Source: a virus
Reading direction: 5' to 3' (one strand)
IMG/VR virus record: IMGVR_UViG_3300009155_000044
Span: 32,001-96,000 of that record
DNA: 64,000 nucleotides
The notes under the pieces: generated by a model
The model's input: the letters and a program-made list of their open reading frames with translations, nothing else
Database searches by the model: none
What the model was told of the DNA's origin: nothing
Shown here: positions 11,994 through 53,202 of the stretch, piece by piece
Numbering within the stretch: position 1 is the first letter of the stretch
How the letters are laid out: every line of letters begins with the position of its first letter
Translations under genes and position numbers: made by a program

Positions 11994-14900
11994 ATGAGTT
12001 GGGAAGCTGGACATCAAAAACTACACAATAAATTCAGAGGTATTAATGAAGAAATTCTCAATACCAAAGGATTTATTGATGAGAGAAAATCTAAAATTTT
12101 ATTATATAAATTTTTAAAAGAAAATCCCTCGTTCACTTCTGAATTCATGACAGGAGTCTCTTTGTTTCCTTTTCAACACATGGCTATTAAAGCGATGATG
12201 GACTCTGATTACTTTTTGGGAATATGGTGTTTAGATGAAAATGAATACGTTTTAACAGAAAGTGGTTTCAAGAAAATTAAAGATGTGAGTGTTGGAGAAC
12301 GAGTAAGATCTAGAAATAAATTAAATCTAGTTACTGATAAAAAATTCAACTCTCCCAATGAAAAAGGATTATATATCAAAACATTTTCAGGAGATTCTTT
12401 CAAGGCAAAACTTGGCCATAAAACTTTAATTTACAATAGCTCAACTTTAGATTTAGAATTTAAAGAGATTGAAACTTTAACAACTGAAGATTTCTTGCCA
12501 ATTAAACTTGGCATGAACTGTTGGGGAGATGTTCAATTGGTAGAGAACTCTCCAAAGATGAACATCGAAGATTGTGATTATTGGTATTTTTTATTAGGAT
12601 ACATGATTGGAGATGGATATTTTGACGACTACACTATGCACTGGTGTTCTGAAGATTCCAAGGTTATTGATATGACAATGGCTAAAGCTAAAGAGTATTT
12701 TCCTAAAAATAAAATTATTTGCCGCTCAAGAGCTAATAATGGATTTTTAGAAATGGGAATTTCTAGCAAAGATTTAATTGACTGGTTAAAATCTATTGGA
12801 TTTGATAGATCTTTAAAAGCAAAAAATAAAATCATACCAGACTCTATCCTCCAAATTAATGAGCAAAAAATGGCAGCTTTAATTAGCGGAATTTTTAGTG
12901 CAGATGGATATTGCAGCGTTCTAAAAGATAAAAGACACTCTAATTCAAAAACAGTTAAATTAGGATTAAAGAATACATCTATTGAATTGCTGAGACAGGT
13001 GAAAATGCTGCTTAATAATTTTGGAGTAGAATCTTCTATTAGATATAGTGGATCTCATAAAGATGTTCCATACTATGATTTAAAAATACTTAAAAGTGGA
13101 CATCAAAAATTTAGCGATAGAATTGGATTCGTTTCAGATCATAAACAAAATAATTTATTAGAGGTTTTAAATCTTCCAAGTAGAAAATATCAAATAAATT
13201 TAGTGCCAAATTTAGGAACTTATCTAAAGAAAAAATATAAAACGTGGCAAAAGTTATTTGGAGTAGCGGGAAACTTTGGTAAAGACATGCGTTTGGATTC
13301 TGCCTTATCAGCAAAGTTTTTAGATGAAAAAGATAAGGAGAGTCTTTTGCTTTTACAAAATGAAAATGTTTATTTTTCAAAAATTGAAACTATAACCTCC
13401 ATCGAAACTTCCACAGTAGACATTACAGTTGATTCTGAAGAGAATTACGTGGGTAATGGTATTGTGCATCATAATTCCCGTGGGATGTCCAAGTGCAGTC
13501 ATTACGATTCATTAGTGTGGACAGATAGAGGACTTATTAAAATTGGAGATATTAAAATTGGAGATAAAGTTCAAAGCCTTATAGGATTCAATGAAGTTGA
13601 AAATAAAGTTATAAATAATAAGCAGCAATCTTATAAGATTACTACTCAATCAGGATTAGTTTCTAATGGTTTGGATTATCATAAATTATTAGTCTTTAAT
13701 AAAGATTTAGAATTCGAATGGAAATTTTCTAAAGATATCATTATTGATGATATTTTGGTTATTAAAAAATTCAAAACTCTAGAACTTTTGCAAAAAGATA
13801 TTTTTGCAGATTTTAAATTTGAAAATAACGTAGTTAATTTTAATAAACCAAAAGTTGTTAAATTTGATAATGCACCTTTAAAGGATTGGTACTATTTCTT
13901 TGGTTTGCTTATTGGAGATGGGTGTATTTTAAATAGGGGAATATCTATCACTTCTGAAGATTTTGAAATTAAAGATTTTTTAGAAGCTTTTTCTTTAAAA
14001 CTGGGCCTTAATTTAACCGTTGTAAATAAACCAGGAAAAACCAAAGATTTTAGAATTTATTCAAAGGAATTAATTTCATTTTTATATCATTTAGGATTTG
14101 ATCAAAAAAAAGCTTGCGAAAAAAATATCCCAAGTATTTTAACACAAGCTTCATCAGAAAATATTCAATTTTTAATGAGAGGATTATTTGATACAGATGG
14201 ATATTGCGCCACTCAAAGAAAAGAAAAAAAAGGAACTCGTGTAAGGGTCGGATTTACTTCAACTAGCGAAGTACTAATCCATCAAATACTTAATCTATGT
14301 TTACAAGAAGGTTTTCTTTTTAAGAAAAAATTAACATTTAAAGGTGGTGCATCTAATTTTCCTAATGGAAAAATTTACAACTGCAATAAAGCTTGGAGTT
14401 TAATTTTAAGCGATGGCAAATCTGTAAAAGAATTTGGTGAAAAAATTGGTTTTAATATCAAAAGAAAACAATCTAAAATTCTTGATTTACAAGAACAAAC
14501 TTCACAAGATGGTAGTTTTTGTGAATTCATACCATATGTCGGAGATTTTTTAAAGAAAAAACTCAATAAGAAATCTATTTGTTTCATTAAAGACGAAAAA
14601 AAAATAAAATTAAATTTTAGAGAAAAAACTAGCAGAGTTCTTTTGAATAAAATTTTAAATTTTGAAAACTTACCAGATGATATTCGGGAAAAACTTAATT
14701 TTTTAAATAAAAATGATGTATATTTTGAAAAAGTTAAATCAGTAGAAATGGACGAATGCGTCACTGTTGATATTCAGGTTGCTAATGAACATTGTTATAT
14801 AGCAGATGGGATAGTTAATCACAACTCCTTTTCTACAGCAGTGTTTGCCATCTTAGATGCGACGTTAAATCAAGGAGTTCACATTGGAATTATTAGTAAA

Positions 14901-16433
14901 TCATTTCGTCAGTCAAAAATGATTTTTAGAAAAATTGAAGAAATTTCTAGAAGTCCAAAAGCTGGATTTTTAGCTCAGTGCATCACTAGAATTTCCAAAA
15001 CAAATGATGAGTGGATCATTGAAATTGGTAGAAGTCGAATCACTGCTCTTCCATTAGGAGATGGTGAAAAATTAAGAGGTTTTCGCTTTCAAAGAATGAT
15101 TATTGACGAACTTCTTTTGATGCCAGAAAAGATTTTAAATGAAGTTATTCTTCCATTCTTATCTGTGGTGGAAAATCCTACAGAAAGACAGCAGCTTCAC
15201 GATTTAGAGAGTAAATTAATAGCCAAGGGAGAAATGATAGAAGAGGATCGCTATCGCTGGCCAAGTAATAAGATTATTGGTTTATCATCAGCAAGTTACA
15301 AGTTTGAATACTTGTACAAATTGTATCAAGAGTATGAACGACTCATTATGCATCCAGATAAGCAAGATGGCGCTCACAGAGTCATCATGCACTTTAGCTA
15401 CGACTGCGCTCCACAGCAATTATACGATCAGAACTTGCTCAGCCAAGCAAAAGCTACAATGAGTCAATCTCAATTTGAAAGAGAATTTGGAAGCGTATTT
15501 ACAGATGATAGCTCAGGCTATTTTAAAGTTAGCAAAATGGCTCTCTGCACAGTAGTTGATGGAGAGGGACAAAGTGTGGAAATCGTGGGAGAATCAAAGG
15601 CTGAATATATTGCTAGTTTTGACCCTTCATGGTCAGAGAGTGATGGATCAGATGATTTTGCTATTCAATTAATCAAATTAAATCCATCCAAGAAAGGAGG
15701 AACTGTGGTTCACTCTTATGCTATGCCAGGAACTAATTTGAAAAAGCACATCGAGTATTTTCACTATTTATTAAGTAATTTTAATATTATAGCTGTTGTG
15801 GGAGACTACAATGGAGGCGTTCAATTTTTAAGCGCATGTAATGAGAGCGAACTTTTTAAAAGAGATGGTTTAAAACTTGAAACTTTTGATTTTGATTTTG
15901 ACAACATAGCAGATTATGACAAATCTTTACGCGAGGCTAGAAGTCAATACAATTTAACAACTAAAAGAATAGTTCATTTGAGAAAGCCTAGTTCTTTTTG
16001 GATTAGATATGCTAATGAATTGCTTCAAGGATCTTTTGATCATCGAAGAATCTGGTTTGCGGGCATGGCAATTGATGATGATTACTCTAAGCAAAAAACT
16101 GCCAAGATTAGCATTGATGATATCAAGTATAGTAAAATAGAAGAGGATCTTTCTTCTGGGGCAAAGTTGATTGATTTTATTGAGCATCAGAAAGACATGA
16201 TTGAATTAATTAAAGTTCAATGCGCTCTTGTGCAAGTAACAACATCCACTCAAGGAACTCAAAGTTTTGATTTGCCCTCAAATCTCAAAAAACAAAAGGG
16301 TGCAAACAGAGCTAGAAAAGATTCTTACTCAGCTTTAGTGTTGGGAAACTGGATGATGCACATGTATTATGACATGATGGCAGTGGAAGCAACTGCTGCT
16401 CCGATTGGATTCACTCCAATGTTTATTTGTTGA
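11994..16433 (+). CDS. terL: Terminase large subunit with two inteins (about 619 aa after splicing)
   Basis: Spliced P-loop W-SRGMSK-SFS, Walker B MIIDE, GLSSA coupling motif, RNase H-like FDP...DDFA and terminal KDSYSAL. Confidence 0.92.
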   Translation: MSWEAGHQKLHNKFRGINEEILNTKGFIDERKSKILLYKFLKENPSFTSEFMTGVSLFPFQHMAIKAMMDSDYFLGIWCLDENEYVLTESGFKKIKDVSVGERVRSRNKLNLVTDKKFNSPNEKGLYIKTFSGDSFKAKLGHKTLIYNSSTLDLEFKEIETLTTEDFLPIKLGMNCWGDVQLVENSPKMNIEDCDYWYFLLGYMIGDGYFDDYTMHWCSEDSKVIDMTMAKAKEYFPKNKIICRSRANNGFLEMGISSKDLIDWLKSIGFDRSLKAKNKIIPDSILQINEQKMAALISGIFSADGYCSVLKDKRHSNSKTVKLGLKNTSIELLRQVKMLLNNFGVESSIRYSGSHKDVPYYDLKILKSGHQKFSDRIGFVSDHKQNNLLEVLNLPSRKYQINLVPNLGTYLKKKYKTWQKLFGVAGNFGKDMRLDSALSAKFLDEKDKESLLLLQNENVYFSKIETITSIETSTVDITVDSEENYVGNGIVHHNSRGMSKCSHYDSLVWTDRGLIKIGDIKIGDKVQSLIGFNEVENKVINNKQQSYKITTQSGLVSNGLDYHKLLVFNKDLEFEWKFSKDIIIDDILVIKKFKTLELLQKDIFADFKFENNVVNFNKPKVVKFDNAPLKDWYYFFGLLIGDGCILNRGISITSEDFEIKDFLEAFSLKLGLNLTVVNKPGKTKDFRIYSKELISFLYHLGFDQKKACEKNIPSILTQASSENIQFLMRGLFDTDGYCATQRKEKKGTRVRVGFTSTSEVLIHQILNLCLQEGFLFKKKLTFKGGASNFPNGKIYNCNKAWSLILSDGKSVKEFGEKIGFNIKRKQSKILDLQEQTSQDGSFCEFIPYVGDFLKKKLNKKSICFIKDEKKIKLNFREKTSRVLLNKILNFENLPDDIREKLNFLNKNDVYFEKVKSVEMDECVTVDIQVANEHCYIADGIVNHNSFSTAVFAILDATLNQGVHIGIISKSFRQSKMIFRKIEEISRSPKAGFLAQCITRISKTNDEWIIEIGRSRITALPLGDGEKLRGFRFQRMIIDELLLMPEKILNEVILPFLSVVENPTERQQLHDLESKLIAKGEMIEEDRYRWPSNKIIGLSSASYKFEYLYKLYQEYERLIMHPDKQDGAHRVIMHFSYDCAPQQLYDQNLLSQAKATMSQSQFEREFGSVFTDDSSGYFKVSKMALCTVVDGEGQSVEIVGESKAEYIASFDPSWSESDGSDDFAIQLIKLNPSKKGGTVVHSYAMPGTNLKKHIEYFHYLLSNFNIIAVVGDYNGGVQFLSACNESELFKRDGLKLETFDFDFDNIADYDKSLREARSQYNLTTKRIVHLRKPSSFWIRYANELLQGSFDHRRIWFAGMAIDDDYSKQKTAKISIDDIKYSKIEEDLSSGAKLIDFIEHQKDMIELIKVQCALVQVTTSTQGTQSFDLPSNLKKQKGANRARKDSYSALVLGNWMMHMYYDMMAVEATAAPIGFTPMFIC
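12228..13475 (+). mobile_element. Intein 1 in TerL with LAGLIDADG homing endonuclease (416 aa)
   Basis: Starts CLDENEYV, ends GIVHHN before Ser; motifs LLGYMIGDG and ISGIFSADG. Confidence 0.93.
13494..14825 (+). mobile_element. Intein 2 in TerL with LAGLIDADG homing endonuclease (444 aa)
   Basis: Starts CSHYDSLV, ends GIVNHN before Ser; motifs FFGLLIGDG and MRGLFDTDG. Confidence 0.93.
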
Positions 16434-29894: not shown

Positions 29895-32800
29895 ATGGCA
29901 TTACAACTTCCAGTAGTACAAACAGGTTTAGAAGCGAGCATTCAAGCGGCAATGAGAAATGCTGGCAAAGGCGCTGTGATTAATTTGGGAACTAGCGGCA
30001 AACAAATTGCCTCACTATCTCAACCACTAGGAAGAATCACTGGTCAAGCTGATCAATTCACAAAATCAATGGAAGCTGCGAATGCTCGCGTTTTCGCATT
30101 CGGAGCATCTGTTGGCATTATTAATAATGTTGCTAAAGCATTTAAAGGGATTATTACTAGCACAATAGAAGTTGAGACTTCTTTAGCAAATATTTATAGC
30201 GTTTTAGATAAAGCTGGATTAAGTGCTAAAGAGTTTGAAAGTGGACTATTTGAAGCTGCAAAAAATGCTGGGCAATCATTCAAAGTTGCTGCCGATGCAG
30301 CTTTAGAATTATCTCGTCAAGGTTTAAATTCACAAGATGTTTTAAAAAGATTAAATGATACTTTAATTTTAACTCGTTTATCTGGATTAGATTCTGCTGC
30401 TGCTGTAGAAGGCTTGAGCGCAGCATACAACTCTTTTGCTGGAACTGGTATTACAACTACAGAAATTCTTAATAAATTAGTTGCTGTTTCTCAAAAATAT
30501 GCAGTTTCTGAAAAAGATCTTATTGAAGGCATTAAAAGAGCAGGATCTACGGCTCAACAAGCTGGAGTTTCTTTTGATGAACTTGCAGCTTTGATTACTG
30601 CTGTACAAGAAAAGACTGCTAGAGGTGGTGCAGTTATTGGTAACTCTTTCAAAACTATTTTTGCTAGACTTCAAGATAAAACAACTCTTGAGTATTTAAG
30701 CGATTTAGGCATTGGAGTTACTGATTTAGAGGGAAAGGTTCTTCCAGCTACTGCAATCATGGAGGGATTAGCTGCAAAATTTAACGATTTTTCAAAAATT
30801 GGACAAGCTGACATTGCTGAAAAGCTGGGTGGTATTTATCAATTGGGAAATTTGCTTGCGGCACTTCAAGATTTATCTAGTGAACAGTCTAAGTATACAG
30901 GAGCTATTAAAGTATCAGCAGAAGCAGCTGATCAAGCTTATCAAAAAAATGCAGCTTTAAATAACACTCTAGAGAGCATCTTGAATAGAGTTTCAGTGAG
31001 TGCTGAACAGTTAGGAGCTACTCTTGGCTCGCTAGGAGTAACTGATAATTTAAAAAATATTTTAAATTTCTTTACTTGGCTTTTAGATGGTATTCAAAAA
31101 GTTTTACAAGAGGATAGTGGAATTGGTAAATTTTTTAAAGGATTAGTTGCTGGTATTGGTAATTTAATCTCTGGGCCAGGACTAGCACTATTTGGAGCTA
31201 TCATTCTTAAACTATCAAGAGATCTTGTTCAGTTTGGATTTTCTAGTTTAAAAAGTTTTTTTGGCATTGGTCAAGCTGCCAAGCAAATTGCAGATGTTGA
31301 AAAATCTGTTGCTCAAGCATTGTCTACAAATGTTTCTTTACAACAACGCTTGTTAGCTGTTGAGGGAGATCGAGCAGCACAGTTAAGAATTATCAGCGCT
31401 GAGATTATTGCTCAAGAAGCGATGCTTAGAAGAATTGCGAGCACATCAGCAGCAATTGCTCCTGGTTTATATGGAGGTGGCGTAAGATCAACAGGACAAG
31501 GCTTGCGCGTTCCAAAAGCTGCTGATGGATACATGCCAGCAGTTGCGGAAGAAGCCTCTAGCGTGAAGCGTGGAGTTGGTGGGGCTAAGCCTTCAGACAA
31601 GCCAGTAGTCATTCCAAACTTCAACTTTGGAGGGGGCAAGCGTGGAACCATGGTTGCAAACTCTGGAGAACACATTGTCCCAAACTTTAATGGAAGCGGC
31701 GGGAGCGCTATCTTCAATAGAGACATGGTGAGAAAAATGGGAATGCCTGTTGGAGCGCAAAAAATTAATTCTGCTGGAGGTTTTGTTCCAAATTTTGCTA
31801 ACGAAATTATTGAAAGTAAAACATTTGAAGTGCAACAATTACCTAAGTTTAAAAATATGGGTAAAGCAGATTTAAATGATGATTTTCAAACTTCTATAGA
31901 AATTATTAGACAAAAAAAATCCATTGGTCATTATAATGCTGCTGCTCAATCAATGGCTCAATCAATGGCTCAATCAATTTTGCCTGTATATGGAAAAAGT
32001 ACTGGAAAAAAAATAAATCAAGAATATTTTGATAAAGTTATTAAAGGTTTTGAAGATGACGGAGTTGATAAAAATGCAATAACAAAATTAAAAACATCAA
32101 TAATAAATGCTGATCCAAATAAGTCTGATGTAGATAAAAACTCTAACTGGACAAATATTAGAAGTGCCATTCAAGGAATACTTGGAGAAGTTGATGCGGC
32201 AAAATTACTAAATACCACAATTACTCAAGGAAATGCTTTTGTAGATTTAACTTCTGGAGAAGAAGTAAAAACTAGAGTAATTCAAAGCTCTAAAGACTTG
32301 ATGAAAAAAGTAGCTAATATTTATTTAGAAACTCATAATACTAAAAATGGCTTAAAAGATGAAATCAGAAAAAATAAGTTAGGTGGTAATTTTAAAGTTG
32401 TAATGCCATTAGGATCTAAATTACGTGCGGCTAATGGTTTTATTCCAAATTTTGCAATCAGTCAAAGAGAAGCTGCTTATAATGCTTGGGATAGCCCATT
32501 GAAAAATGGTAAACCATATGATTTTGTAAAAAATGCTAGCGGACAAAAGGGAACTAGTCCTAATAAAACAGAAGCTATTAAAATATCACAAGCGCTTGAT
32601 CTTTATATAGCAGAAAATTCTGCTCAAAATAGAAACGATTATAAATCTAATAAACAAGAGAGTGTAACTAAAAGACGCGCAGATACAAGTGGGGCTGTAG
32701 CTGAATTTGGAATGATTTATCCATCAAATTCAAAAGGTTCAGTCTCATCATTTTTAGTTGGAAGTCAAAACGAAGTTGTAAAGGGCATTCCAATTATTGG

Positions 32801-35800
32801 TAAACCATCAGATGACTTGTATCCTGAAATTGAAAAGGGAATTATTAATGCTGGAATGAATTATGCTAAAAATTTAGGATTTAATCCTGATATCATACAA
32901 GAAGAGAGATTTGCAGCAGGAATAAAAAGCCATCTAAATCCTGGAACTATTGAAGCTGCTTTTGGAACAGTTTTTGAAAGCGTATTTCAGTCGGCTATGC
33001 AAGTGCCGCCAAATAATAATCAAACACTTGATTTACCAAATAGATCCAAGTTAAATTCATTTGTTGGATCTATGGAAAGGGGTGGAATATTAAAAGCTTC
33101 TATCGCTAATAATATAAATCCAGAGATGCTAGCTGCTGATTTTAAAAATGATTTGAGCGATTTAAATTTAAGTAGCATGGCTGCAAAAATTAAAGCATAT
33201 CGAGATAAACAAGCTACTAGAGGAAATACTACTAAAACTTCTGCTAGAGGTTTCATTCCAAACTTTGCAAACTCATCCATGCCTCCTGTATCCATGGTGC
33301 CAATGCCAAAAAGTGCAGAGTATCAAAGAAGGCAAAGAGAAAGATCTGCTAAAGCTCAAAAATATAGAAGCGCCTCTGGACTTATAGGAGATTTGTTTAA
33401 AACTCTTCCAGAGAAATTTTTTACAGATTTAGTTTTAGGAGACTCTGACTATGGAGTTGAAACTCCAAGCATTTTCAAAGCTATTAAAGATAGCGCACTT
33501 TATTCAGCAGCTTTTGCTGGTCCAAATGCTTTAAAGTTTGTTCAAGAAGCAGAGGAATATGGTTTAAAAGTTGCTAAAAGTCTTCAAGATAAATTAGCAA
33601 AATTAGTTGTTAAAGCTACAACTAAAAAATCTAGCGCTAATGGATTTTTACCAAACTTTGCAGATCCAGTCCAAGCTGCTATTGGCAGGGAAATGAGCGC
33701 TGGAGTTCCAGCTTCTCAAATTTACATCGACCAGAATTCATCATTAAAGAGCGCTATGAATCCTAATGGACTCATGGTGGCTAATCGTATAGATGAACCA
33801 ATGGGAGGCTCACAGGGCATTGCTAGAGCGCGTAAAGAGGGATCTAATCCAATGACGTATGGAGCAGCTAGAGGTTTTGTGCCAAACTATGCTAATATTG
33901 GATCATTTCAAACTCAAGGAAACTCAATTACTAGTAATCAGGCATCAATAAATCAACCAGCAGTAAATACTGCTGCTGCTGCTGCTGCTGCATCTAGTGT
34001 TGTTATTAGTGCTGCTTCCCAAGCAGCAGCAAAACTTCCCCTACCAAAATCTACTGCAAGATCAATTACACAATATCCAAAAGTAAACGTTGATACTTCT
34101 AGCAATAAAAATTCTCAAGTGAGTGGTGAAAGAATGCTTGGAACTATTTTTGCAATTCAAGGTGCATTATCAGTTTTACAAGGAGTTGTTGGTGAAGTTT
34201 CTGGAGAAATGGGTGTAGCATTAAGGGTTATAACTAGTGGTTTAAGCTCTTTAACTACGGGGGCATTTGCTCTTCAAGGATTGCAAGGTATGGGCGGATT
34301 AATAGGTGGAGCTACAAAAGCTCTTGGCCCATATGCTTTAGCTTTAGGAGCAGCAACAGCAGCTACTAATGCTTTTGTAGACTACATGAATGAAACTAGT
34401 GGAGCAAATACAGTTGCTGCTAAAAGTTTAGAAAGAGTTGATAGAGCAGCTTCGCAATCTTCTGGAAAATTAGAAGATTATGCAAAAACAGCGCAAGATG
34501 ACATAAGAAAAAGAGCTTCAATACAGGTTGAAGCTATGATGGGGGAAAATAAAACAGATGGTGGTTATAAAATCTTTGGAGATACTCCACAATTAAAAGC
34601 TGTAAAAGAAATATATGCAAAGGGTTTAGGCGCTGGAGCTTTTGGTCCTGATTTGGCTGATATATTAAAAAAGTCAGCTGAAAATGGTCTTACAGATAGT
34701 GAAGTTGATGATTTTTCAATATCGGTAGCAACTTTTATTGAAGCAATAAATAAAGTTCCAGATGAAATATTTAATAGTATAGATAAATCTTCTGAAATTT
34801 ATAAAGCATTATCTGAAAATCCAACCACTATTGAAAATAATTTAAAAAATTCAAATGGGCTTTTATATGAGCCTTTATATGAATTGAGAAAAAAATTCCA
34901 AGACGCTGGAATGCGAAATGACGACGCAATTAATAAAAATATTATGAATTTTGCGTCTAAAGTTAAAACTGAAACAAATGCTAAAGATTCAGAAAACCAG
35001 ATGGCTATTTCTAGAGTTCCAGCTGAAGTATATAAACAAGAATTAAATTCAATTATAAAAATTGCTAAAGCTAAAGCTGAAGCAAAAAGAGTTGAAGAAG
35101 ACCTTGATACTCAAGCATTACAAAAGGGTAAGGAGTTAGGTGCATTATCTGAGTCTCAGATTAATATACTACAGTATAAGATAGCTTTAAAATCTGAAGA
35201 TTTAAAACTAGAGGATTTACATCGTGATGCTTTAAGTGCTATAGTTGATACCATGGATGCTCAACAGATATCTGATGAAAAAAGAATTACTTTAAAAACA
35301 CTAATTAATCAATTAGCAGATAAAGATAGAATAACAGCAGAAGATATTAAAAATATTACTGAAGAATCTTTAAAAGCTCAAGGAACTATTCCAGAAATTG
35401 TGGCTAAAACAGCAGAGGAAAAGAAAAAAGCATTAGAGCTAGACACAAAGGTAAGTAAGATTGCTAAAGCTATTCTAGAAGCAGAAAATGGTAGAACTGT
35501 TGCAACTTTAAAAACTAAACAAGCGATTAATGAAATTATACAGTCAACAAGTCATTTATTGACAATGAAAAATTTTCAGATTGATTTAACAGCAACAATC
35601 AAAACTAATGAAATTGAAAAAGAAATAAGAAGACTGGAACTTAATCAGCCGCAAAATACAGTAGCTGCTCGCGCACAAGCTGCTCAAATTGCACAAAAAA
35701 AATATGAATTATTGCAAACTCAATCTCCACTTGAGGCTCAAAAAAAATTCAATAATGCTAAAACTGGATTAATAAATCAAGCTAACAGTTTAAGTCTTAA

Positions 35801-38081
35801 CGACACTGATTTTGCAAATTTACAAAAATCAATTGAATCATCAAAAAATATATCTGAACTTCAAAATAAAGCTAAGATTCCAACAGGAGTAGTTTTTAAT
35901 AGAGACAAATATCCTGAATATGCAAGTGCTATAGATACTACAATAGCTGAATTGAAACAATTTGATGCAAATACAGCTGGAAGTATTGCTGCCGCCTCAG
36001 ATGAGCTTGCAAAATCTAAATTACCGCTAGTAGTTAAAAAATTCTCAGACTATGTTATTGATTTAAATGATGGTTTAGATGCAGCTATAGAACAAGCTAA
36101 ATTTGAATTTTTATCAACTACTAGTGGCTCTGGATTATTAGATAAAGCATCAAAAGACAAATTTAATGCTGAAATGAAATCTGCTGGCACTAGTTCATCT
36201 GGAATTTCTCAAGCTTATGCTAATGAAGCAGCGAGATCTGATCAAAGAAGATTAGCATTAGCAGGATCTGCGGGAGATAAAACATCAATAGAATACGATA
36301 TTGAAATAAATAAAAAAATTCTTGCTATTAAACAAGAGAGCGTTGATACTCAAACACTATCAGAGGATCAAGAAGCTAGAATTCTTGAGCTTGAAAAACA
36401 ACGCTTAGAAGTTAATAAATCTTTGAGTCAAAAACTCAAAGAAGCTTTTGCCACTTCGCCACAAGATCAAATCAATAAATTAAACAACACTCTTGTTGAG
36501 GGCGCTGTCAAATTCAGAGACACAATGATTGATGGCATTGTTCAAGCTATAGAAACTGGCAAAGGACTAAAAGATGTTTTAACTTCTGCTGTGTTAGATT
36601 TCTCCAGAGAACTCATGAGAACTTCGTTGAGAAATCTTACTGGTTCATTATTTGGCGGAATTGGTGGAATGTTTGGACAGGGCAATCAAATTTCCACAGG
36701 AGCTTCTGGAGGAGCCGTTTCTGGAGGAAGCGGAAGCAAGGATGACGTTCCAGCAATGCTCATGGGCGGAGAGTACATCATTAATAAAAAATCAGTTAAT
36801 AAATATGGACCAAAATTCTTAGAAGCTATCAATTCTGGAAATTTAAATGGATATGCTAAAGGCGGAAAAGTAAAAGACTATTTTACTCCTGGAACTTATG
36901 GCGTGAAACAAATGACTACTGATGATGATTTATTAGCTTTTGCAACTCAAGAATCTACTAGCGGAAAAAAAGATAAAATTCGTTCTGGAGATGGATTTGC
37001 ATCAGTTTCTTTAGAACCAGAGAGTGTTCGATTAACTAATTTTGGCAGAAGAAATAGTCCACAAGCTCAAAGAGCCAAAGATGTTAGAAAACAAATCTTT
37101 GGAATCTACATTGATGAAATGAAAAAAGCTGCTGAATTAAAAAGACAAGAAGAAGAAGAGAAAAAAGCTAGAAAAAAAGCTATTAAAAATGCTTTGATTA
37201 TGGCAGGAATTTCTATAGCTGGATCAGCATTAATAGGAGCAGCAACTAGTGGGTTTAGCAATGCTTACTCAACATCTAAACTTGCTGGAGGCACTTTTGG
37301 AAAAAATGTAGGATCTGGAGTGGGAGGAATGTTTACAGGAGGAGGAGTTTCTGGTTTGCAAGGAAATAACTATGGAGGACTATTTAACATGTTCTCTAAA
37401 TCTGGATATGTTACTAAAGCTAGCCAAATGGCTGGAAGTATCACTAGCAAAGGTTTTATAGGGCCAGTTCAAAATTCTAGCAATGTTAATATTGGTAATA
37501 ATATAGCCCAACCGAGCTTTCCTTTAGGAGGCTCATCTGAAACTTATGCAGGAGGGTTATTTCCGATGGGATTGACTCCTGAACTTGGAGCATCTGGACC
37601 TGGAATGAGTTATGGTACAGCAATAGATTTAACTAATCCTAATAGTGAAGATCCATATAATCCATTTCGTATAACAACAAGAGCAGTTGGGGGATCCATT
37701 TCTGAAACAGCAGGAATAGATACAATTCCAACAATGCTTTCTGGTGGAGAATTCGTTATGAATCGTGCTGCTGCTCAAAATATTGGACCTGGAAACTTGC
37801 AAGCTATGAATGCTGGAGCTTCTAAACCAATGAGCGAAGAAGCTTCAAAAGATTTAAATAACAAATTAATTTCTAAATTTGATGAACTCATTGGAACGAC
37901 TGAAAAATCCACAGGTTCAATCACTATTAATGTGGATGGATCCTCTGGAAAAAGTTCAGAAAACTCCTCTGGTCAAACTCAAGGAGCAAATCAACAACTT
38001 TCGCGCCAAATCAGAGATGCTGTTTTAAAAGTTATTCAAGAGGAAAAACGTCTTGGCGGTCAATTAAGAAGAGGAATGTAA
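29895..38081 (+). CDS. Tail tape measure protein (2728 aa) with internal modules
   Basis: TP901-type N-terminus (GRITGQADQFTKSMEAANARV; ARGGAVIGNSFKTIFAR), Ala/Gly-rich helices, and two DxVPxMLxGGE motifs near the C-terminus. Confidence 0.9.
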   Translation: MALQLPVVQTGLEASIQAAMRNAGKGAVINLGTSGKQIASLSQPLGRITGQADQFTKSMEAANARVFAFGASVGIINNVAKAFKGIITSTIEVETSLANIYSVLDKAGLSAKEFESGLFEAAKNAGQSFKVAADAALELSRQGLNSQDVLKRLNDTLILTRLSGLDSAAAVEGLSAAYNSFAGTGITTTEILNKLVAVSQKYAVSEKDLIEGIKRAGSTAQQAGVSFDELAALITAVQEKTARGGAVIGNSFKTIFARLQDKTTLEYLSDLGIGVTDLEGKVLPATAIMEGLAAKFNDFSKIGQADIAEKLGGIYQLGNLLAALQDLSSEQSKYTGAIKVSAEAADQAYQKNAALNNTLESILNRVSVSAEQLGATLGSLGVTDNLKNILNFFTWLLDGIQKVLQEDSGIGKFFKGLVAGIGNLISGPGLALFGAIILKLSRDLVQFGFSSLKSFFGIGQAAKQIADVEKSVAQALSTNVSLQQRLLAVEGDRAAQLRIISAEIIAQEAMLRRIASTSAAIAPGLYGGGVRSTGQGLRVPKAADGYMPAVAEEASSVKRGVGGAKPSDKPVVIPNFNFGGGKRGTMVANSGEHIVPNFNGSGGSAIFNRDMVRKMGMPVGAQKINSAGGFVPNFANEIIESKTFEVQQLPKFKNMGKADLNDDFQTSIEIIRQKKSIGHYNAAAQSMAQSMAQSILPVYGKSTGKKINQEYFDKVIKGFEDDGVDKNAITKLKTSIINADPNKSDVDKNSNWTNIRSAIQGILGEVDAAKLLNTTITQGNAFVDLTSGEEVKTRVIQSSKDLMKKVANIYLETHNTKNGLKDEIRKNKLGGNFKVVMPLGSKLRAANGFIPNFAISQREAAYNAWDSPLKNGKPYDFVKNASGQKGTSPNKTEAIKISQALDLYIAENSAQNRNDYKSNKQESVTKRRADTSGAVAEFGMIYPSNSKGSVSSFLVGSQNEVVKGIPIIGKPSDDLYPEIEKGIINAGMNYAKNLGFNPDIIQEERFAAGIKSHLNPGTIEAAFGTVFESVFQSAMQVPPNNNQTLDLPNRSKLNSFVGSMERGGILKASIANNINPEMLAADFKNDLSDLNLSSMAAKIKAYRDKQATRGNTTKTSARGFIPNFANSSMPPVSMVPMPKSAEYQRRQRERSAKAQKYRSASGLIGDLFKTLPEKFFTDLVLGDSDYGVETPSIFKAIKDSALYSAAFAGPNALKFVQEAEEYGLKVAKSLQDKLAKLVVKATTKKSSANGFLPNFADPVQAAIGREMSAGVPASQIYIDQNSSLKSAMNPNGLMVANRIDEPMGGSQGIARARKEGSNPMTYGAARGFVPNYANIGSFQTQGNSITSNQASINQPAVNTAAAAAAASSVVISAASQAAAKLPLPKSTARSITQYPKVNVDTSSNKNSQVSGERMLGTIFAIQGALSVLQGVVGEVSGEMGVALRVITSGLSSLTTGAFALQGLQGMGGLIGGATKALGPYALALGAATAATNAFVDYMNETSGANTVAAKSLERVDRAASQSSGKLEDYAKTAQDDIRKRASIQVEAMMGENKTDGGYKIFGDTPQLKAVKEIYAKGLGAGAFGPDLADILKKSAENGLTDSEVDDFSISVATFIEAINKVPDEIFNSIDKSSEIYKALSENPTTIENNLKNSNGLLYEPLYELRKKFQDAGMRNDDAINKNIMNFASKVKTETNAKDSENQMAISRVPAEVYKQELNSIIKIAKAKAEAKRVEEDLDTQALQKGKELGALSESQINILQYKIALKSEDLKLEDLHRDALSAIVDTMDAQQISDEKRITLKTLINQLADKDRITAEDIKNITEESLKAQGTIPEIVAKTAEEKKKALELDTKVSKIAKAILEAENGRTVATLKTKQAINEIIQSTSHLLTMKNFQIDLTATIKTNEIEKEIRRLELNQPQNTVAARAQAAQIAQKKYELLQTQSPLEAQKKFNNAKTGLINQANSLSLNDTDFANLQKSIESSKNISELQNKAKIPTGVVFNRDKYPEYASAIDTTIAELKQFDANTAGSIAAASDELAKSKLPLVVKKFSDYVIDLNDGLDAAIEQAKFEFLSTTSGSGLLDKASKDKFNAEMKSAGTSSSGISQAYANEAARSDQRRLALAGSAGDKTSIEYDIEINKKILAIKQESVDTQTLSEDQEARILELEKQRLEVNKSLSQKLKEAFATSPQDQINKLNNTLVEGAVKFRDTMIDGIVQAIETGKGLKDVLTSAVLDFSRELMRTSLRNLTGSLFGGIGGMFGQGNQISTGASGGAVSGGSGSKDDVPAMLMGGEYIINKKSVNKYGPKFLEAINSGNLNGYAKGGKVKDYFTPGTYGVKQMTTDDDLLAFATQESTSGKKDKIRSGDGFASVSLEPESVRLTNFGRRNSPQAQRAKDVRKQIFGIYIDEMKKAAELKRQEEEEKKARKKAIKNALIMAGISIAGSALIGAATSGFSNAYSTSKLAGGTFGKNVGSGVGGMFTGGGVSGLQGNNYGGLFNMFSKSGYVTKASQMAGSITSKGFIGPVQNSSNVNIGNNIAQPSFPLGGSSETYAGGLFPMGLTPELGASGPGMSYGTAIDLTNPNSEDPYNPFRITTRAVGGSISETAGIDTIPTMLSGGEFVMNRAAAQNIGPGNLQAMNAGASKPMSEEASKDLNNKLISKFDELIGTTEKSTGSITINVDGSSGKSSENSSGQTQGANQQLSRQIRDAVLKVIQEEKRLGGQLRRGM

Positions 38082-41024: not shown

Positions 41025-43526
41025 ATGAACTTAGGTCCAACACAAGTCAGTGCAACATATCCATTTGTTTTAAATCAAAGTGGCGCTAATGCAATCACTC
41101 TTGGTGGTAATAATCCAGTTGATTGGGAATCGGGAGGAGTTGTTGCTAAAACTGGAAATCAAACTATTAGCGGACTTAAAACATTTGATTCAGCATTATC
41201 TTTAAACACTCAAGCCTCCACTACTAGTCATGCAGTTCGCGCAGATAGAAACCTAAGTGCTGGTAGCGGATTAGTTGGAGGAGGACAATTAACTGGGGAT
41301 CTTACATTTAATATTGGAACGGGTTACGGAATAACAGTTTCAGCAGATCAAATTAACATCAACACATCAAATGTTGTGGTCACAACTGGAAATCAAACTA
41401 TTGCTGGAATAAAAACTTTCACTGATCAAATAGTTAATACTGCAAATGGGAATAGCTCTAGTAATCCAGCATCATATATTTCATGTGGAGCTAGTAATAC
41501 AATTGCATCATCATCAGATTATTGTTATATTGGAGGGGGTACTAGTAATAATATTCAGAATACTATTACTAGTTCTTTAATTGCAGGAGGAGATTCTAAT
41601 ACTATTAATGCAAATTATTCGATAATTGCAGGAGGCGCAGCAAATACTATTAATGCAGATTATTCATTTATCGGAGGAGGAGCTAATAATATTGCTAGTA
41701 GTATTGGCTCTAGTATTAGTGCTGGAAATCTAAATACTACAGCAGGACTTTATTCAACAATTGGCGGTGGAGAAAATAATACTGCATCTGGAAATCACTC
41801 AACAATCGCTGGCGGAACAGGAAATTCAACAACTAATTCTTATTCTTTTATTGGAGGAGGAACATCTAATACTACTTATGGAGCTAATGCTTCTGTTGGT
41901 GGAGGGCAGAATAATAAATCAAATGGGGCGTATTCTTTTATTGGTGGCGGGCAAAATAATATTGCTACTGGCGCTAATGCTTTTGTAGGTGCTGGAAATG
42001 GTAATATTGCTAATGGAGACTATTCATCTGCTGTTGGAGGATATCAAAATTCTACTAGTGGTCAGTACGCTTTCATTGGGGCTGGATATCAAAATGCTAC
42101 CATAGGAGTTGGAGCTTCAGTTTTAGGAGGCTATAAAAATACAGCTAGTGGAAATTACGCCTCAGTAGGTGGTGGATGGACTAATTATGCAAAAGGATTA
42201 TATTCTAGCGTAAATGGAGGATATCAAAATTATGCTAGTGGAAATTACGCATCAGTATCAGCTGGATATAATAATAAAGCTAGTGGAAATTATTCATTTA
42301 TTGGATGTGGACAAAATAATATTAGTATTGGAAATAATTCATTTATTGGGGCTGGAAATGGAAATACATCGTCTGGACTTTATTCAACAGTATTAAATGG
42401 TGAAACAAACCAATCTATAGGAGATTATTCTATCATAGCAAATGGATTTGAAAGTAAATCAAATGGAATTTACTCTTCAATATTTAATGGTTTTCAAAAT
42501 TATGCATTTGGGGATTATTCATTAATTGGTGGAGGCGCAAATAATACGGCTAGTGGATCATATTCTAATATTATTGGCGGAACAATTAATACAGTTTCTT
42601 CTAATTATTCTATAGTTGGAGGTGGAACTCAAAATACTATTATTAAAAATAGCGATTATTCATCAATTTTTGGCGGTATAAATAATAGTGCGTCTGGAAG
42701 ATATTCGAGTATATTAGGTGGATCTGGTAACATGATTAGTGGAACTAATTCATCAATTGGAGCAGGAAATTCTAATAAAATAACTGGAAATTATTCTACA
42801 ATTGGTGGTGGAAATTCTAATAAAATAACTGGAAATTATTCTATAATTGGTGGTGGAGGTCTTAATGAAATTAAAAAAGATTATTCATCTATTATAGGAG
42901 GAACATTTAATAAAATTTCTGGAGAAAGCTCAACAATAGCTGGTGGTGCCGCTAATGAAGCTACATCTACTTATTCTTTTATTGGTGCTGGATATGGAAA
43001 TATAGTTAGTGGAGATTATTCTACAATTTTAGGTGGCGATAGCAATACTATTAAATATGGAAATTATAGCATTATAGGAGCAGGATCGATGAATAGTTCT
43101 AGTGGAGTTTACTCTTCAATATTAGGAGGATATGCTAATCAAATTAGTGGTGGCGAATATTCATTCATTGGTGGCGGATCTGGAAATAGTATTAGTGGAA
43201 ATTACTCATGTATTTTAGGGGGAACAAATCACTTTAATAGTGGAGAGTACTCAAGTATTTTAGGAGGAAGAAGCGCTCAAATTCCAAAATCTCATACTGG
43301 ATCTACAGTCATAGCTGATGGTCAAGATAGAACTCACTCTTCCAGAGCACCATATGCTTGCACATTAGATTTTGCTAGTGGAACTTACTTCTCTCTTCCA
43401 AAATTTGCTGGACTTTCCACTCAAACTGGAAAATTTGGAGAAATGGCAGTTAGTGGATCTGGTCTTTATATTTGCACTGGAACTGCTGGAAGTGGGTGGG
43501 GAAGAATTTTCTTATCTACTTTTTAA
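41025..43526 (+). CDS. Tail fibre / adhesin with Gly-Asn-Ser beta-roll repeats
   Basis: Two TGNQTIxGxKTF motifs, then roughly 40 repeats of 14-15 aa (xIGGGxxNxxxGxYS). Confidence 0.75.
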   Translation: MNLGPTQVSATYPFVLNQSGANAITLGGNNPVDWESGGVVAKTGNQTISGLKTFDSALSLNTQASTTSHAVRADRNLSAGSGLVGGGQLTGDLTFNIGTGYGITVSADQININTSNVVVTTGNQTIAGIKTFTDQIVNTANGNSSSNPASYISCGASNTIASSSDYCYIGGGTSNNIQNTITSSLIAGGDSNTINANYSIIAGGAANTINADYSFIGGGANNIASSIGSSISAGNLNTTAGLYSTIGGGENNTASGNHSTIAGGTGNSTTNSYSFIGGGTSNTTYGANASVGGGQNNKSNGAYSFIGGGQNNIATGANAFVGAGNGNIANGDYSSAVGGYQNSTSGQYAFIGAGYQNATIGVGASVLGGYKNTASGNYASVGGGWTNYAKGLYSSVNGGYQNYASGNYASVSAGYNNKASGNYSFIGCGQNNISIGNNSFIGAGNGNTSSGLYSTVLNGETNQSIGDYSIIANGFESKSNGIYSSIFNGFQNYAFGDYSLIGGGANNTASGSYSNIIGGTINTVSSNYSIVGGGTQNTIIKNSDYSSIFGGINNSASGRYSSILGGSGNMISGTNSSIGAGNSNKITGNYSTIGGGNSNKITGNYSIIGGGGLNEIKKDYSSIIGGTFNKISGESSTIAGGAANEATSTYSFIGAGYGNIVSGDYSTILGGDSNTIKYGNYSIIGAGSMNSSSGVYSSILGGYANQISGGEYSFIGGGSGNSISGNYSCILGGTNHFNSGEYSSILGGRSAQIPKSHTGSTVIADGQDRTHSSRAPYACTLDFASGTYFSLPKFAGLSTQTGKFGEMAVSGSGLYICTGTAGSGWGRIFLSTF

Positions 43527-50424: not shown

Positions 50425-53202
50425 ATGGAAAAAAATATTTACTGGCTCAATGCAGATTCTCGCAAATTTTTAAGCAGCGGTTATTTGATGGACGGCGAAA
50501 CTGCTGAGCAGAGAATATCTGATGTTGCACAAACAGCAGAAAGTCTTTTATCTGTAAGCGAGGATTGTATTACTAAAGTTAATGATTACCTCAAATGCAA
50601 AAGTTTTGCTGAGAAGTTCGCAGACTATCTTGAGCGTGGATTTTATTCATTATCATCTCCTAATTGGTCAAACTTTGGCAGAAAAAGAGGTCTTCCAATT
50701 TCTTGTTTTGGAACTTATCTAGAAGATTCTATCGAGTCTATTACTGGTCATAAACTTGCTGAAATCAGCATGATGACAAAATCTGGGGGAGGCACTAGCG
50801 CATTTTTTGGCAATGTTCGTCCTAGAGGATCTAAAATTTCATCTGGTGGAGAATCAACAGGTTCAGTTCATTTTATGGAACTCTACGATAAGATGATGAC
50901 TGTTGTCTCTCAGGGAAATACGAGAAGAGGAGCTTGTGCAATATATCTTCCAATTGATCATGGTGATATCGAAGAATTTTTAAAAATTAAATCAGAAGGA
51001 AATGATATTCAAGAACTCTCAATTGGAGTCTGCGTCACTAATAAGTGGATGCAGGACATGATTGATGGCAATAAAGAAAATAGAAGAATCTGGGGTCTTG
51101 TGATTCAAAAGAGATTTGAAAGCGGATATCCATACATCTTTTTCTCTGATAACGCTAATGATCAAGCCCCTCAAGTTTATAAAGATAAAAATTTAAAAAT
51201 CAGTCATTCAAATCTTTGCGTCACTGGAGATCAAAGGGTTATTTCTAATTTTGGAATTTTAACGGCAAAAGAACTCTATGAAAATGGAGATGAGTTAATT
51301 CTTTTTGATAATGAAAAAGAAGTAAAAGCATCAAAAATGAAATTAGTTGAGAAAGATGCTGATGTTTTTGAAATTAAACTTGAGAATGGAATGTCGCATA
51401 AAATTACATCCTATCATAAAGTTTCTACAAAAGATGGGGATATAGCATGTCACGATTTAAAAATTGGAGATTCTGTTGCGGTTCAAACAAATAAGGGAAT
51501 TTTTGGAAATAATGATATGACCAAAGAAGCATTTCTTCTTGGTTTATATCAAGCTGATGGAACTCAACATAAAGATTATATTATGATTGATATTTGGAGA
51601 AATGATTTTGATTTAATTGAAGAAGTTCAAAATGCTCATGATTTCGTATCTGATAAATATAAAACTCAAATTTCTCTCTATAATAATAGAGTTTATCAAA
51701 ACGCTAGTTTTTGCAACTGTGTTGTTGCTGAAGGGTCTCATGAGAAAAAAAGACTATCTAGTAAAGCACTTAAAAAAGCATTGAATTTTGAAAAAGGATA
51801 CGTTCCAGAATGGATCTGGTCGTCCAATGAAGAAACGCTATGGCAATACATTAGAGGTCTTTACTATGCAGACGGAACTGTGTTTAAATCTAAATCATCT
51901 GGAGAACCACTTCAAATTTCACTAGCTTCAATTAACAAAGAATTTCTAGAAGAAGTGCAAATTATTTTAGCAAATCTTGGAATGCAATCATCAATTCGCC
52001 TTTTAAGAGAAAGTTGTGAGTCGTTACTTCCTGATGGACATGGAGGAAACAAAATGTATAAAACTAAAACTGCTTGGAGATTAATTATTGGAAATAAAAA
52101 TGATGCATTAGTTTTTAATAAAAATACTAAATTTCTTGATAGAAAAAATATTATTCTAGAGGATCGTGAATATAGAGATAATACTAAAAAATTCTATAAA
52201 GTTTCATCTATTTCTAATATTGGGCAAGAGGATGTCTATTGTTGCACAGTAGAATCAAAATCTCATCACTGGATCTGCAATGGAGTTGTTACTCACAACT
52301 GTAATGAAATAATGCTTGCTGATTCTCCAACAGAATCTTTTGTTTGTAATTTGTCATCTCTGAATCTGGATAAGTGGGAAGAGTGGAAAGATACTGATGC
52401 TGTTGAAACAATGGTATTTTTCTTGGATGCTGTCATGACAGAGTTTATTAATAAAACTGAAAACATGGCATTCATGAGTCATGCTCGCAACTTTGCAATC
52501 AATCAGAGAGCGCTTGGTATTGGAGTTCTTGGTTGGCATTCACTACTTCAGTCTAAAATGATTCCTTTTGAATCAATGGATGCTAAAATTTTAAATAACC
52601 AAATTTGGAAAACAATCAGAAATCGCGCCGATGTGGCTACTGAGAAATTAGCTGAAATCTATGGAGAACCAGCATTACTTGAAGGATATGGTCGTCGTAA
52701 TGTGACTACAATAGCTGTAGCTCCAACAGTAAGCTCAAGCTTTATTCTTGGTCAAGTCTCTCAGGGCATTGAACCTTTAAATGGCAATTACTTTGTTAAA
52801 GGATTAGCTAAGGGCGATTTCTCTTATCAAAATCCCTATTTAGAAAAATTGCTAATTGAAAAAAATCAAAACTCCGCAGAAGTTTGGAAATCTATTTTAA
52901 TTCGAGGAGGATCTGTTGCTCATTTAGATTTCTTGTCTGAAAATGAAAAAGCTACTTTTAAAACTTTTGGAGAAATCTCTCAGAAAGAAATTATCATTCA
53001 AGCCTCTCAACGTCAAAAATACATTGACCAAGGTCAAAGCTTAAACATCATGATTCCTCCTTCAGCATCTGCCAAAGAAGTTAATCAACTTATGATTTTT
53101 GCATGGGAACAAGGAATCAAAGGCTTGTATTATCAAAAGAGCGCTAATCCAGCGCAAGAACTAGCTCGCTCTATTCTCAATTGCGAATCATGCCAAGCAT
53201 AA
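50425..53202 (+). CDS. nrdA: Ribonucleotide reductase class I alpha subunit with intein (about 564 aa after splicing)
   Basis: LPISCF, spliced SNL-CNEI, VAPTVSS, GIKGLYYQ, C-terminal CESC. Confidence 0.95.
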   Translation: MEKNIYWLNADSRKFLSSGYLMDGETAEQRISDVAQTAESLLSVSEDCITKVNDYLKCKSFAEKFADYLERGFYSLSSPNWSNFGRKRGLPISCFGTYLEDSIESITGHKLAEISMMTKSGGGTSAFFGNVRPRGSKISSGGESTGSVHFMELYDKMMTVVSQGNTRRGACAIYLPIDHGDIEEFLKIKSEGNDIQELSIGVCVTNKWMQDMIDGNKENRRIWGLVIQKRFESGYPYIFFSDNANDQAPQVYKDKNLKISHSNLCVTGDQRVISNFGILTAKELYENGDELILFDNEKEVKASKMKLVEKDADVFEIKLENGMSHKITSYHKVSTKDGDIACHDLKIGDSVAVQTNKGIFGNNDMTKEAFLLGLYQADGTQHKDYIMIDIWRNDFDLIEEVQNAHDFVSDKYKTQISLYNNRVYQNASFCNCVVAEGSHEKKRLSSKALKKALNFEKGYVPEWIWSSNEETLWQYIRGLYYADGTVFKSKSSGEPLQISLASINKEFLEEVQIILANLGMQSSIRLLRESCESLLPDGHGGNKMYKTKTAWRLIIGNKNDALVFNKNTKFLDRKNIILEDREYRDNTKKFYKVSSISNIGQEDVYCCTVESKSHHWICNGVVTHNCNEIMLADSPTESFVCNLSSLNLDKWEEWKDTDAVETMVFFLDAVMTEFINKTENMAFMSHARNFAINQRALGIGVLGWHSLLQSKMIPFESMDAKILNNQIWKTIRNRADVATEKLAEIYGEPALLEGYGRRNVTTIAVAPTVSSSFILGQVSQGIEPLNGNYFVKGLAKGDFSYQNPYLEKLLIEKNQNSAEVWKSILIRGGSVAHLDFLSENEKATFKTFGEISQKEIIIQASQRQKYIDQGQSLNIMIPPSASAKEVNQLMIFAWEQGIKGLYYQKSANPAQELARSILNCESCQA
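51217..52299 (+). mobile_element. Intein in NrdA with LAGLIDADG endonuclease (361 aa)
   Basis: Starts CVTGDQRV, ends VVTHN before Cys; motifs LLGLYQADG and IRGLYYADG. Confidence 0.93.

Follow-up and report, generated by a model that had tools for sequence, protein, structure and literature searches.

The window analysed here is a stretch of viral DNA of 64,000 nucleotides (nt), positions 32,001 to 96,000 of the IMG/VR record IMGVR_UViG_3300009155_000044, and the gene of interest within it encodes a giant tape measure protein (TMP) that carries a row of domains separated by a short repeated peptide. The source record is a single virus contig of 120,073 bp with a CheckV completeness of 93%, which also codes for a terminase and a ribonucleotide reductase. 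We recognized the gene, P0001, as a phage TMP because its product contains a PhageMin_Tail domain (PF10145), matches TMP PHROGs (best E 1.7e-48), and is followed by minor tail and baseplate genes. The PF10145 score in a Pfam scan (99.1 bits against a cut-off of 33.2) identifies a TMP of the TP901 type, and downstream open reading frames (ORFs) matching minor tail protein PHROGs 290 and 14 place it within a tail module. The gene is the TMP of an uncultured siphovirus-like aquatic phage with a genome of about 120 kb.

Five copies of the peptide G[FY][VIL]PN[FY]A (the PNFA motif) divide part of the N-terminal half of this protein into units, which we refer to as modules and which together form an array. 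The layout in window coordinates is as follows, with each module counted from the first residue of the motif that opens it.

29895-38081 (+): TMP gene P0001, 2728 amino acids (aa), identified from the ORF list and translation, PF10145 and TMP PHROGs, with minor tail protein genes 3' of it
30252-30833 (+): PhageMin_Tail domain (PF10145), aa 120-313, E 4.1e-28
31134-31241 (+): hydrophobic segment 1, aa 414-449, 5' of the array (Kyte-Doolittle scan, maximum 1.67)
31527-31778 (+): conserved pre-array region (84-aa unit) with the degenerate forms GYMPA, VIPNFNF and IVPNFNG; constant across relatives
31779-31799 (+): motif copy 1, GFVPNFA, aa 629-635; recombination junction relative to P0004, P0005 and L007
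31779-32435 (+): module M2, family F5, 219 aa; predicted with confidence to be a compact domain, with conserved G761, G764, E765, D784, E790, K792 and T793
32436-32456 (+): motif copy 2, GFIPNFA, aa 848-854
32436-33248 (+): module M3, family F6, 271 aa; invariant E1028, D1046, D1082 and K1084
33249-33269 (+): motif copy 3, GFIPNFA, aa 1119-1125
33249-33641 (+): module M4, family F2, 131 aa; found in 16 relatives
33642-33662 (+): motif copy 4, GFLPNFA, aa 1250-1256
33642-33872 (+): module M5, family F0, 77 aa; constant last unit of the array
33873-33893 (+): motif copy 5, GFVPNYA, aa 1327-1333; closes the array
33957-34217 (+): Ala/Gly-rich hydrophobic segment 2, aa 1355-1441, 3' of the array (hydrophobicity scan)

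A first-pass annotation made from the letters of the window had placed the repeat at 31779, 32436, 33249, 33642 and 33873, with a degenerate GYMPA at 31527, and had derived units of 84, 219, 271, 131 and 77 aa; these positions and sizes proved exact. Five motif copies compare with 0.0 expected from 20,000 shuffles of the TMP sequence, and none was found elsewhere in the six frames of the whole 120,073-bp genome. Two extra half-motifs occur within the 84-aa unit (VIPNFNFGGG at aa 574 and IVPNFNGSGG at aa 596). The annotation had also remarked that the repeats resemble each other as DNA. The resemblance is real, with 76–90% identity across the 21-nt coding cores, but it is trivial, as the flanks align at chance level; DNA repeats as a driver in their own right, beyond codon-level similarity, were rejected, since only those 21 nt are alike.

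To place the array among related proteins, we searched with aa 540-1345 of the TMP, which returned 579 proteins at E < 0.001, and analyzed the best 120 of these 579. They are giant TMPs (1663–4358 aa) from metagenomic contigs, the longest of which measure about 140 kb. When 119 TMPs were split at the motif, 360 modules in 47 families resulted, and 480 motif copies gave the consensus A-A-x-G-[FY]-[IV]-P-N-[FY]-A, in which the G, P and N are each conserved at 98–100%. The first copy falls at aa 623-637 in nearly all relatives, and is followed by one to eight units. Module order varies from the F5-F6-F2-F0 of the window to, for example, F13-F6-F2-F0, F6-F2-F0 and F5-F1-F9-F0. The array covers 77 to 1890 aa and largely accounts for the differences in TMP length (r = 0.78); the N-terminal part is fixed. 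Family F0, the 77-aa unit, occurs in 97 of the 119 and is nearly always the final unit, as it is in the window. In five relatives (P0007, P0011, P0017, P0023 and P0036) F0 also occurs internally, with more modules and a second F0 after it, which suggests duplication or fusion of a whole array. Searches for cultured or GenBank phage relatives of the array, the pre-array region or F0 found none, and a literature search covering 8.4 million papers and preprints did not turn up the PNFA motif strings.

Within a TMP that is otherwise conserved, the array is hypervariable: whole modules have been gained, lost and replaced across hundreds of phage relatives. P0004 and P0005, the nearest relatives by N-terminal sequence, lack M2; up to the motif they share 89–91% identity with the window's TMP. 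In 30-residue windows their identity stays at 93–100% to the motif and falls to chance level (13–20%) immediately past it. The DNA of locus L007 is identical to that of the window for 76 nt running into the motif, after which the two become unalignable. These comparisons place the recombination junctions exactly at the motif. A FastTree phylogeny built from the first 600 aa of 85 TMPs requires a minimum of 39 changes in first-module family, against 54–59 in the label shuffles printed; the lowest number possible is 10. Exchange of modules bounded by the repeat is thus strongly supported, because the 119 relatives vary in the modules that the motif delimits and identity collapses right after it. 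This agrees with the first-pass proposal of swapping by recombination at the repeats and with its expectation that module content (one to eight modules, some 47 families) would not be invariant. Its description of the units as exchangeable holds for module content but not for the 84-aa unit and the 77-aa F0, which are constant scaffold rather than cargo.

Such freedom in module number, down to TMPs with a single 77-aa unit, would also suit neutral filler, or spacers for length or packing, in a slot that tolerates insertions. We regard this explanation as improbable. Each family retains invariant polar residues at only 25–40% overall identity, the families persist across marine and freshwater metagenomes, and M2 is predicted to adopt a compact fold with confidence.

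Insertion and deletion exactly at a short conserved site, together with the nuclease-like residue patterns described below, could instead point to selfish in-frame elements, intein-like or derived from homing endonucleases, that insert at the motif. The junctions argue otherwise. Modules start with G-F, preceded by A-A-x, so that there is no Cys, Ser or Thr nucleophile at the module start, and no His-Asn pair is present at the end. Unlike an intein, the array is joined at A-A-x / G-[FY]-[IV]-P-N-[FY]-A, and no HINT or homing-endonuclease match was found with Pfam. No convincing free-standing copy was found either, a few short matches perhaps being contig fragments, and the constant units F0 and F2 share the same motif. 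We consider this origin very improbable, and the earlier suggestion of a domesticated mobile domain finds no support here.

Two modules had been proposed to be PD-(D/E)XK nucleases on the basis of short residue strings, all of which are present: GILGE (aa 761-765) and FVD-x5-EVK (aa 782-792) in M2, and GTVFE (aa 1024-1028), LD (aa 1045-1046) and ADFK (aa 1081-1084) in M3. Both modules therefore carry the Asp, the (D/E)-x-K and the upstream helix Glu that characterize this fold class. The most conserved block of M2 reads G-x-x-G-E-x-D-A, then N-x3-D-L-x4-E-x-K-T. Among 34 relatives, E765 (32/32), D784 (33/33) and T793 are invariant, and E790 is Glu in 31 and Asp in 3. In M3, E1028, D1046, D1082 and K1084 are each found in 13/13 relatives. 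We modeled M2 with both flanking motifs from 34 sequences, and obtained a predicted local distance difference test score (pLDDT) of 86.5 and a predicted template modeling score of 0.82. Both motif stretches scored below pLDDT 55 and are predicted to be disordered linkers. In the model, the conserved residues fall on a series of elements that runs helix, three short strands, helix, strand, which would match the element order of the restriction-endonuclease-like core.

Several results weigh against an enzymatic and, in particular, a nuclease identity. The putative catalytic lysine of M2, K792, is Lys in 23, Arg in 10 and Cys in 1 of the 34 relatives, which weakens the catalytic reading. Foldseek returned no match for the M2 model, and in fold searches no enzyme stood above noise. 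Few of the structural matches to M2 continue past its helical subdomain toward the C-terminus, and five of these few, within noise, are FAN1 VRR-NUC (PDB 8s5a, 5y7g, 9gy0) or arenavirus endonuclease (PDB 4i1t) structures. The model of M3, built from 13 sequences, was of medium quality (pLDDT 69) and gave no nuclease-like fold match. Searches of Pfam (E 10), PHROG and NCBIfam (E 10) with each module and with eleven whole TMPs produced zero matches in motif-bounded modules, and PDB sequence searches with the M2 and M3 profiles and a single F13 module found nothing. The ESM Atlas likewise held no usable match for M2 or the M3 core, and hidden Markov models for VRR_NUC, Hjc and UPF0102 had no match in the genome at E 10. 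When the M2 profile was compared with 1.84 billion representative sequences, 26 matches were obtained, nearly all giant TMPs with a few short, possibly fragmentary proteins. The M3 profile found one, possibly fragmentary, protein in the range of 72–478 aa. In these searches, the M2 and M3 families were found only in TMPs, short possible fragments aside.

Weighing the invariant residues and the element order of the M2 model against these results, we find the nuclease reading of M2 plausible. That M2 is a very divergent restriction-endonuclease-like domain is an evenly balanced call, and that it cuts DNA is a more tentative proposal. The first-pass interpretation as a whole is partly supported: its residue patterns are invariant in M2 and M3, and the element order of M2 fits, but no sequence model matched, no fold match rose above noise for M2 or appeared for M3, and a lysine is replaced by arginine in 10 of 34 M2 relatives.

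Other families extend this pattern. Profile–profile comparison joined F6 (the family of M3) to F4 (98%) and F1 (94%), with F10 linked through F4 (96%) and F3 through F1 (95%), to form one superfamily; F10 resembles F6, and F1 does so more weakly. The M2 family, F5, was unlinked to any other family in this comparison. F13, which takes the place of M2 in P0003, contains FE...PD-x8-11-EAK, and F7 contains SAVDGF-x9-LLEVK. Families F3, F12 and F16 carry a Walker A sequence, P[AS]G[AS]GK[ST]T, preceded by Y-I-Y-D-S-D (for example P0018 aa 341-611 and P0049 aa 894-1055). Judged by these residues, they may be kinase- or nucleoside triphosphatase-like cargo that Pfam does not recognize.

The strongest competitor to an enzyme-like cargo is that the modules are host-interaction or conduit parts, which once ejected would bind periplasmic or inner-membrane host proteins to build the DNA channel and would diversify under pressure from host range and from defenses that sense the TMP, with the conserved Glu, Asp and Lys being structural or metal-binding. 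The array does lie between two hydrophobic, membrane-type segments, aa 414-449 and aa 1355-1441. TMPs contact inner-membrane entry factors and are targeted by the SNIPE defense, with escape mutations arising in the TMP (PMC13190303). The tolerance of arginine at K792, the absence of any enzyme-family match for a module and the lack of an enzyme above noise in fold searches all fit this explanation. What speaks against it is that in several unrelated families the invariant residues cluster in blocks that look catalytic (PD...EAK, D...EVK and Walker A GxGK[ST]T), and that receptor-like diversification is usually gradual rather than a replacement of whole domains by unrelated folds. On this balance, we judge host contact to be an unlikely account of the array, though the main alternative.

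We favor the explanation that the window encodes a polymorphic domain array within a giant TP901-type TMP, joined by the motif and consisting of enzyme-like modules carried in the tail, and put its probability at roughly 55%. Small, independently folding domains would stand in a row, connected by disordered linkers that each end in A-A-x-G-[FY]-[IV]-P-N-[FY]-A. In long-tailed phages, the TMP is the first to leave the tail, and it makes up or lines the path by which DNA enters. We read the modules as delivered and partly enzyme-like because the TMP leaves first, because an enzyme that is fused to a TMP and functions inside the host is documented in phage P23-45 and because of where the array is positioned. 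The modules would then be ready-made proteins that are carried out of the tail with the TMP before the DNA leaves. Several may be enzyme-like, with the nuclease-like E...D...(D/E)xK of M2, M3, F7, F13 and F10 and the Walker A P-loop of F3, F12 and F16. Their targets might be nucleic acid, whether of the host or incoming, or defense functions.

The PNFA peptide itself may be a linear motif at which a partner from the tail, or a chaperone, docks or at which the protein is cleaved. As a side effect, its coding sequence would offer a frame-preserving microhomology of 21 nt for cassette exchange. Neither an MPTase (PF18818) nor an S78 protease was found in the 120-kb genome (93% complete), and no peptidase Pfam match was found in the TMPs scanned. 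Both the docking and the cleavage readings stand, because no processing protease was found. A more specific proposal is that the motif is a dedicated processing or docking site through which a large clade of aquatic phages loads a customizable set of enzymes (nuclease-like, P-loop kinase-like and others) into the tail for release into the host ahead of the DNA, with cassettes exchanged at the 21-nt coding sequence. We offer it as a speculative possibility; if true, it would amount to an effector-cassette system of phage tails, akin to MARTX or polymorphic toxins and built into the ruler protein of the virion.

Further features were observed in the TMP and its surroundings. The C-terminal part of the TMP contains two copies of the peptide [VI]P[AT]ML[MS]GGE[YF] (36747-36776 and 37725-37754, plus strand), which is kept in all relatives; the stretch separating the two copies includes a third hydrophobic segment (aa 2428-2455). 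Further downstream, 41025-43526 (+) encodes an 833-aa protein with a BppL_N lower-baseplate domain and an antifreeze-type beta-roll, which is likely the receptor-binding protein. Upstream, a 1479-aa ORF at 11994-16433 (+) matches the terminase large subunit only at aa 468-563 and 906-1367; outside these parts, PHROG matches are ribonucleotide-reductase-like (aa 79-323) and, between them, helicase-like (aa 628-765). From these matches, it looks like a terminase gene into which large inserts, perhaps inteins, have been introduced. Matches of the large subunit of ribonucleotide reductase (925 aa, 50425-53202, plus strand) are split as well (aa 4-214 and 626-924), which leaves an unassigned insert of about 400 aa.

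TMPs are usually viewed as rulers, sometimes with a wall-degrading domain. In the clade of uncultured phages described here (a single search gave 579 proteins at E < 0.001), the TMP acts as a chassis whose standard joint accepts, loses and swaps unrelated orphan domains. The 120 nearest relatives alone yielded about 47 module families, none with a Pfam assignment. If the modules are delivered, they would form a large unexplored reservoir of first-strike effectors that act before phage gene expression, and the arrangement would give a naturally evolved scheme for equipping phage tails with proteins.

Known TMPs with embedded peptidoglycan hydrolases include those with motifs of the mycobacteriophage TM4 type and pb2 of phage T5. 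Relatives of the window's TMP carry such domains (SLT, phage lysozyme, VanY, NlpC/P60 and GH19 in P0003, P0020, P0036, P0040, P0069 and P0070, at aa 1680-3360), but these occupy another variable slot, within the last third of the protein, and do not lie between motifs. No recognizable hydrolase was found in the window's TMP by Pfam scan. Peptidoglycan hydrolases as cargo fenced by the motif were rejected on account of this separate slot. Compared with PD-(D/E)XK nucleases such as the FAN1 VRR-NUC and the arenavirus cap-snatching endonuclease, in which a helix Glu, an Asp and a (D/E)-x-K on a hairpin are combined, the M2 model has an order of elements that would fit alpha-beta-beta-beta-alpha-beta; unlike members of that clan, it is matched by no curated clan model in the Pfam and NCBIfam scans.

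Polymorphic toxins offer a parallel to the joint itself. In these secreted bacterial proteins (CdiA with VENN, Rhs with PxxxxDPxGL), a short conserved peptide borders swappable domains and serves as a recombination point, and the toxin is C-terminal and accompanied by an immunity gene. The array shares the conserved peptide that delimits a variable domain and acts as a recombination point. It differs in that the modules lie inside a TMP (aa 629-1333 of 2728) and are in frame with it, and in that the next genes encode tail proteins, with no immunity gene. MARTX toxins carry several effectors in a row, with linkers that are cut and a dedicated cysteine protease domain, whereas this array lies inside a phage structural protein with no protease domain, so that the likeness is one of analogy only.

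Thermus phage P23-45 gp96 is a TMP of 5002 aa whose N-terminal part is the virion RNA polymerase, proposed to act at the entry pore on incoming DNA (PMC10770324). The window's protein is likewise a giant TMP with globular domains in its N-terminal half. It differs from gp96, which has one fixed enzyme with demonstrated activity and no delimiting peptide, array or cassette exchange, in that its modules belong to orphan families whose enzyme nature is predicted. The polyvalent proteins of phages and conjugative elements are giant polypeptides that combine unrelated effector-type domains, which are proposed to accompany the DNA on entry and to be split apart once delivered, in an account that mentions neither TMPs nor a PNFA fence (Iyer et al., 2017; PMC5512222). 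In the window's TMP, unrelated module families stand together in one giant polypeptide, and their motifs may point to an effector nature. Unlike polyvalent proteins, which combine an MPTase peptidase with other named domains, this genome has no MPTase and no module matches their domain families. The nearest described concepts would be P23-45 gp96 and the polyvalent proteins, followed by TMPs with wall hydrolases, with polymorphic toxins and MARTX arrays comparable by analogy only.

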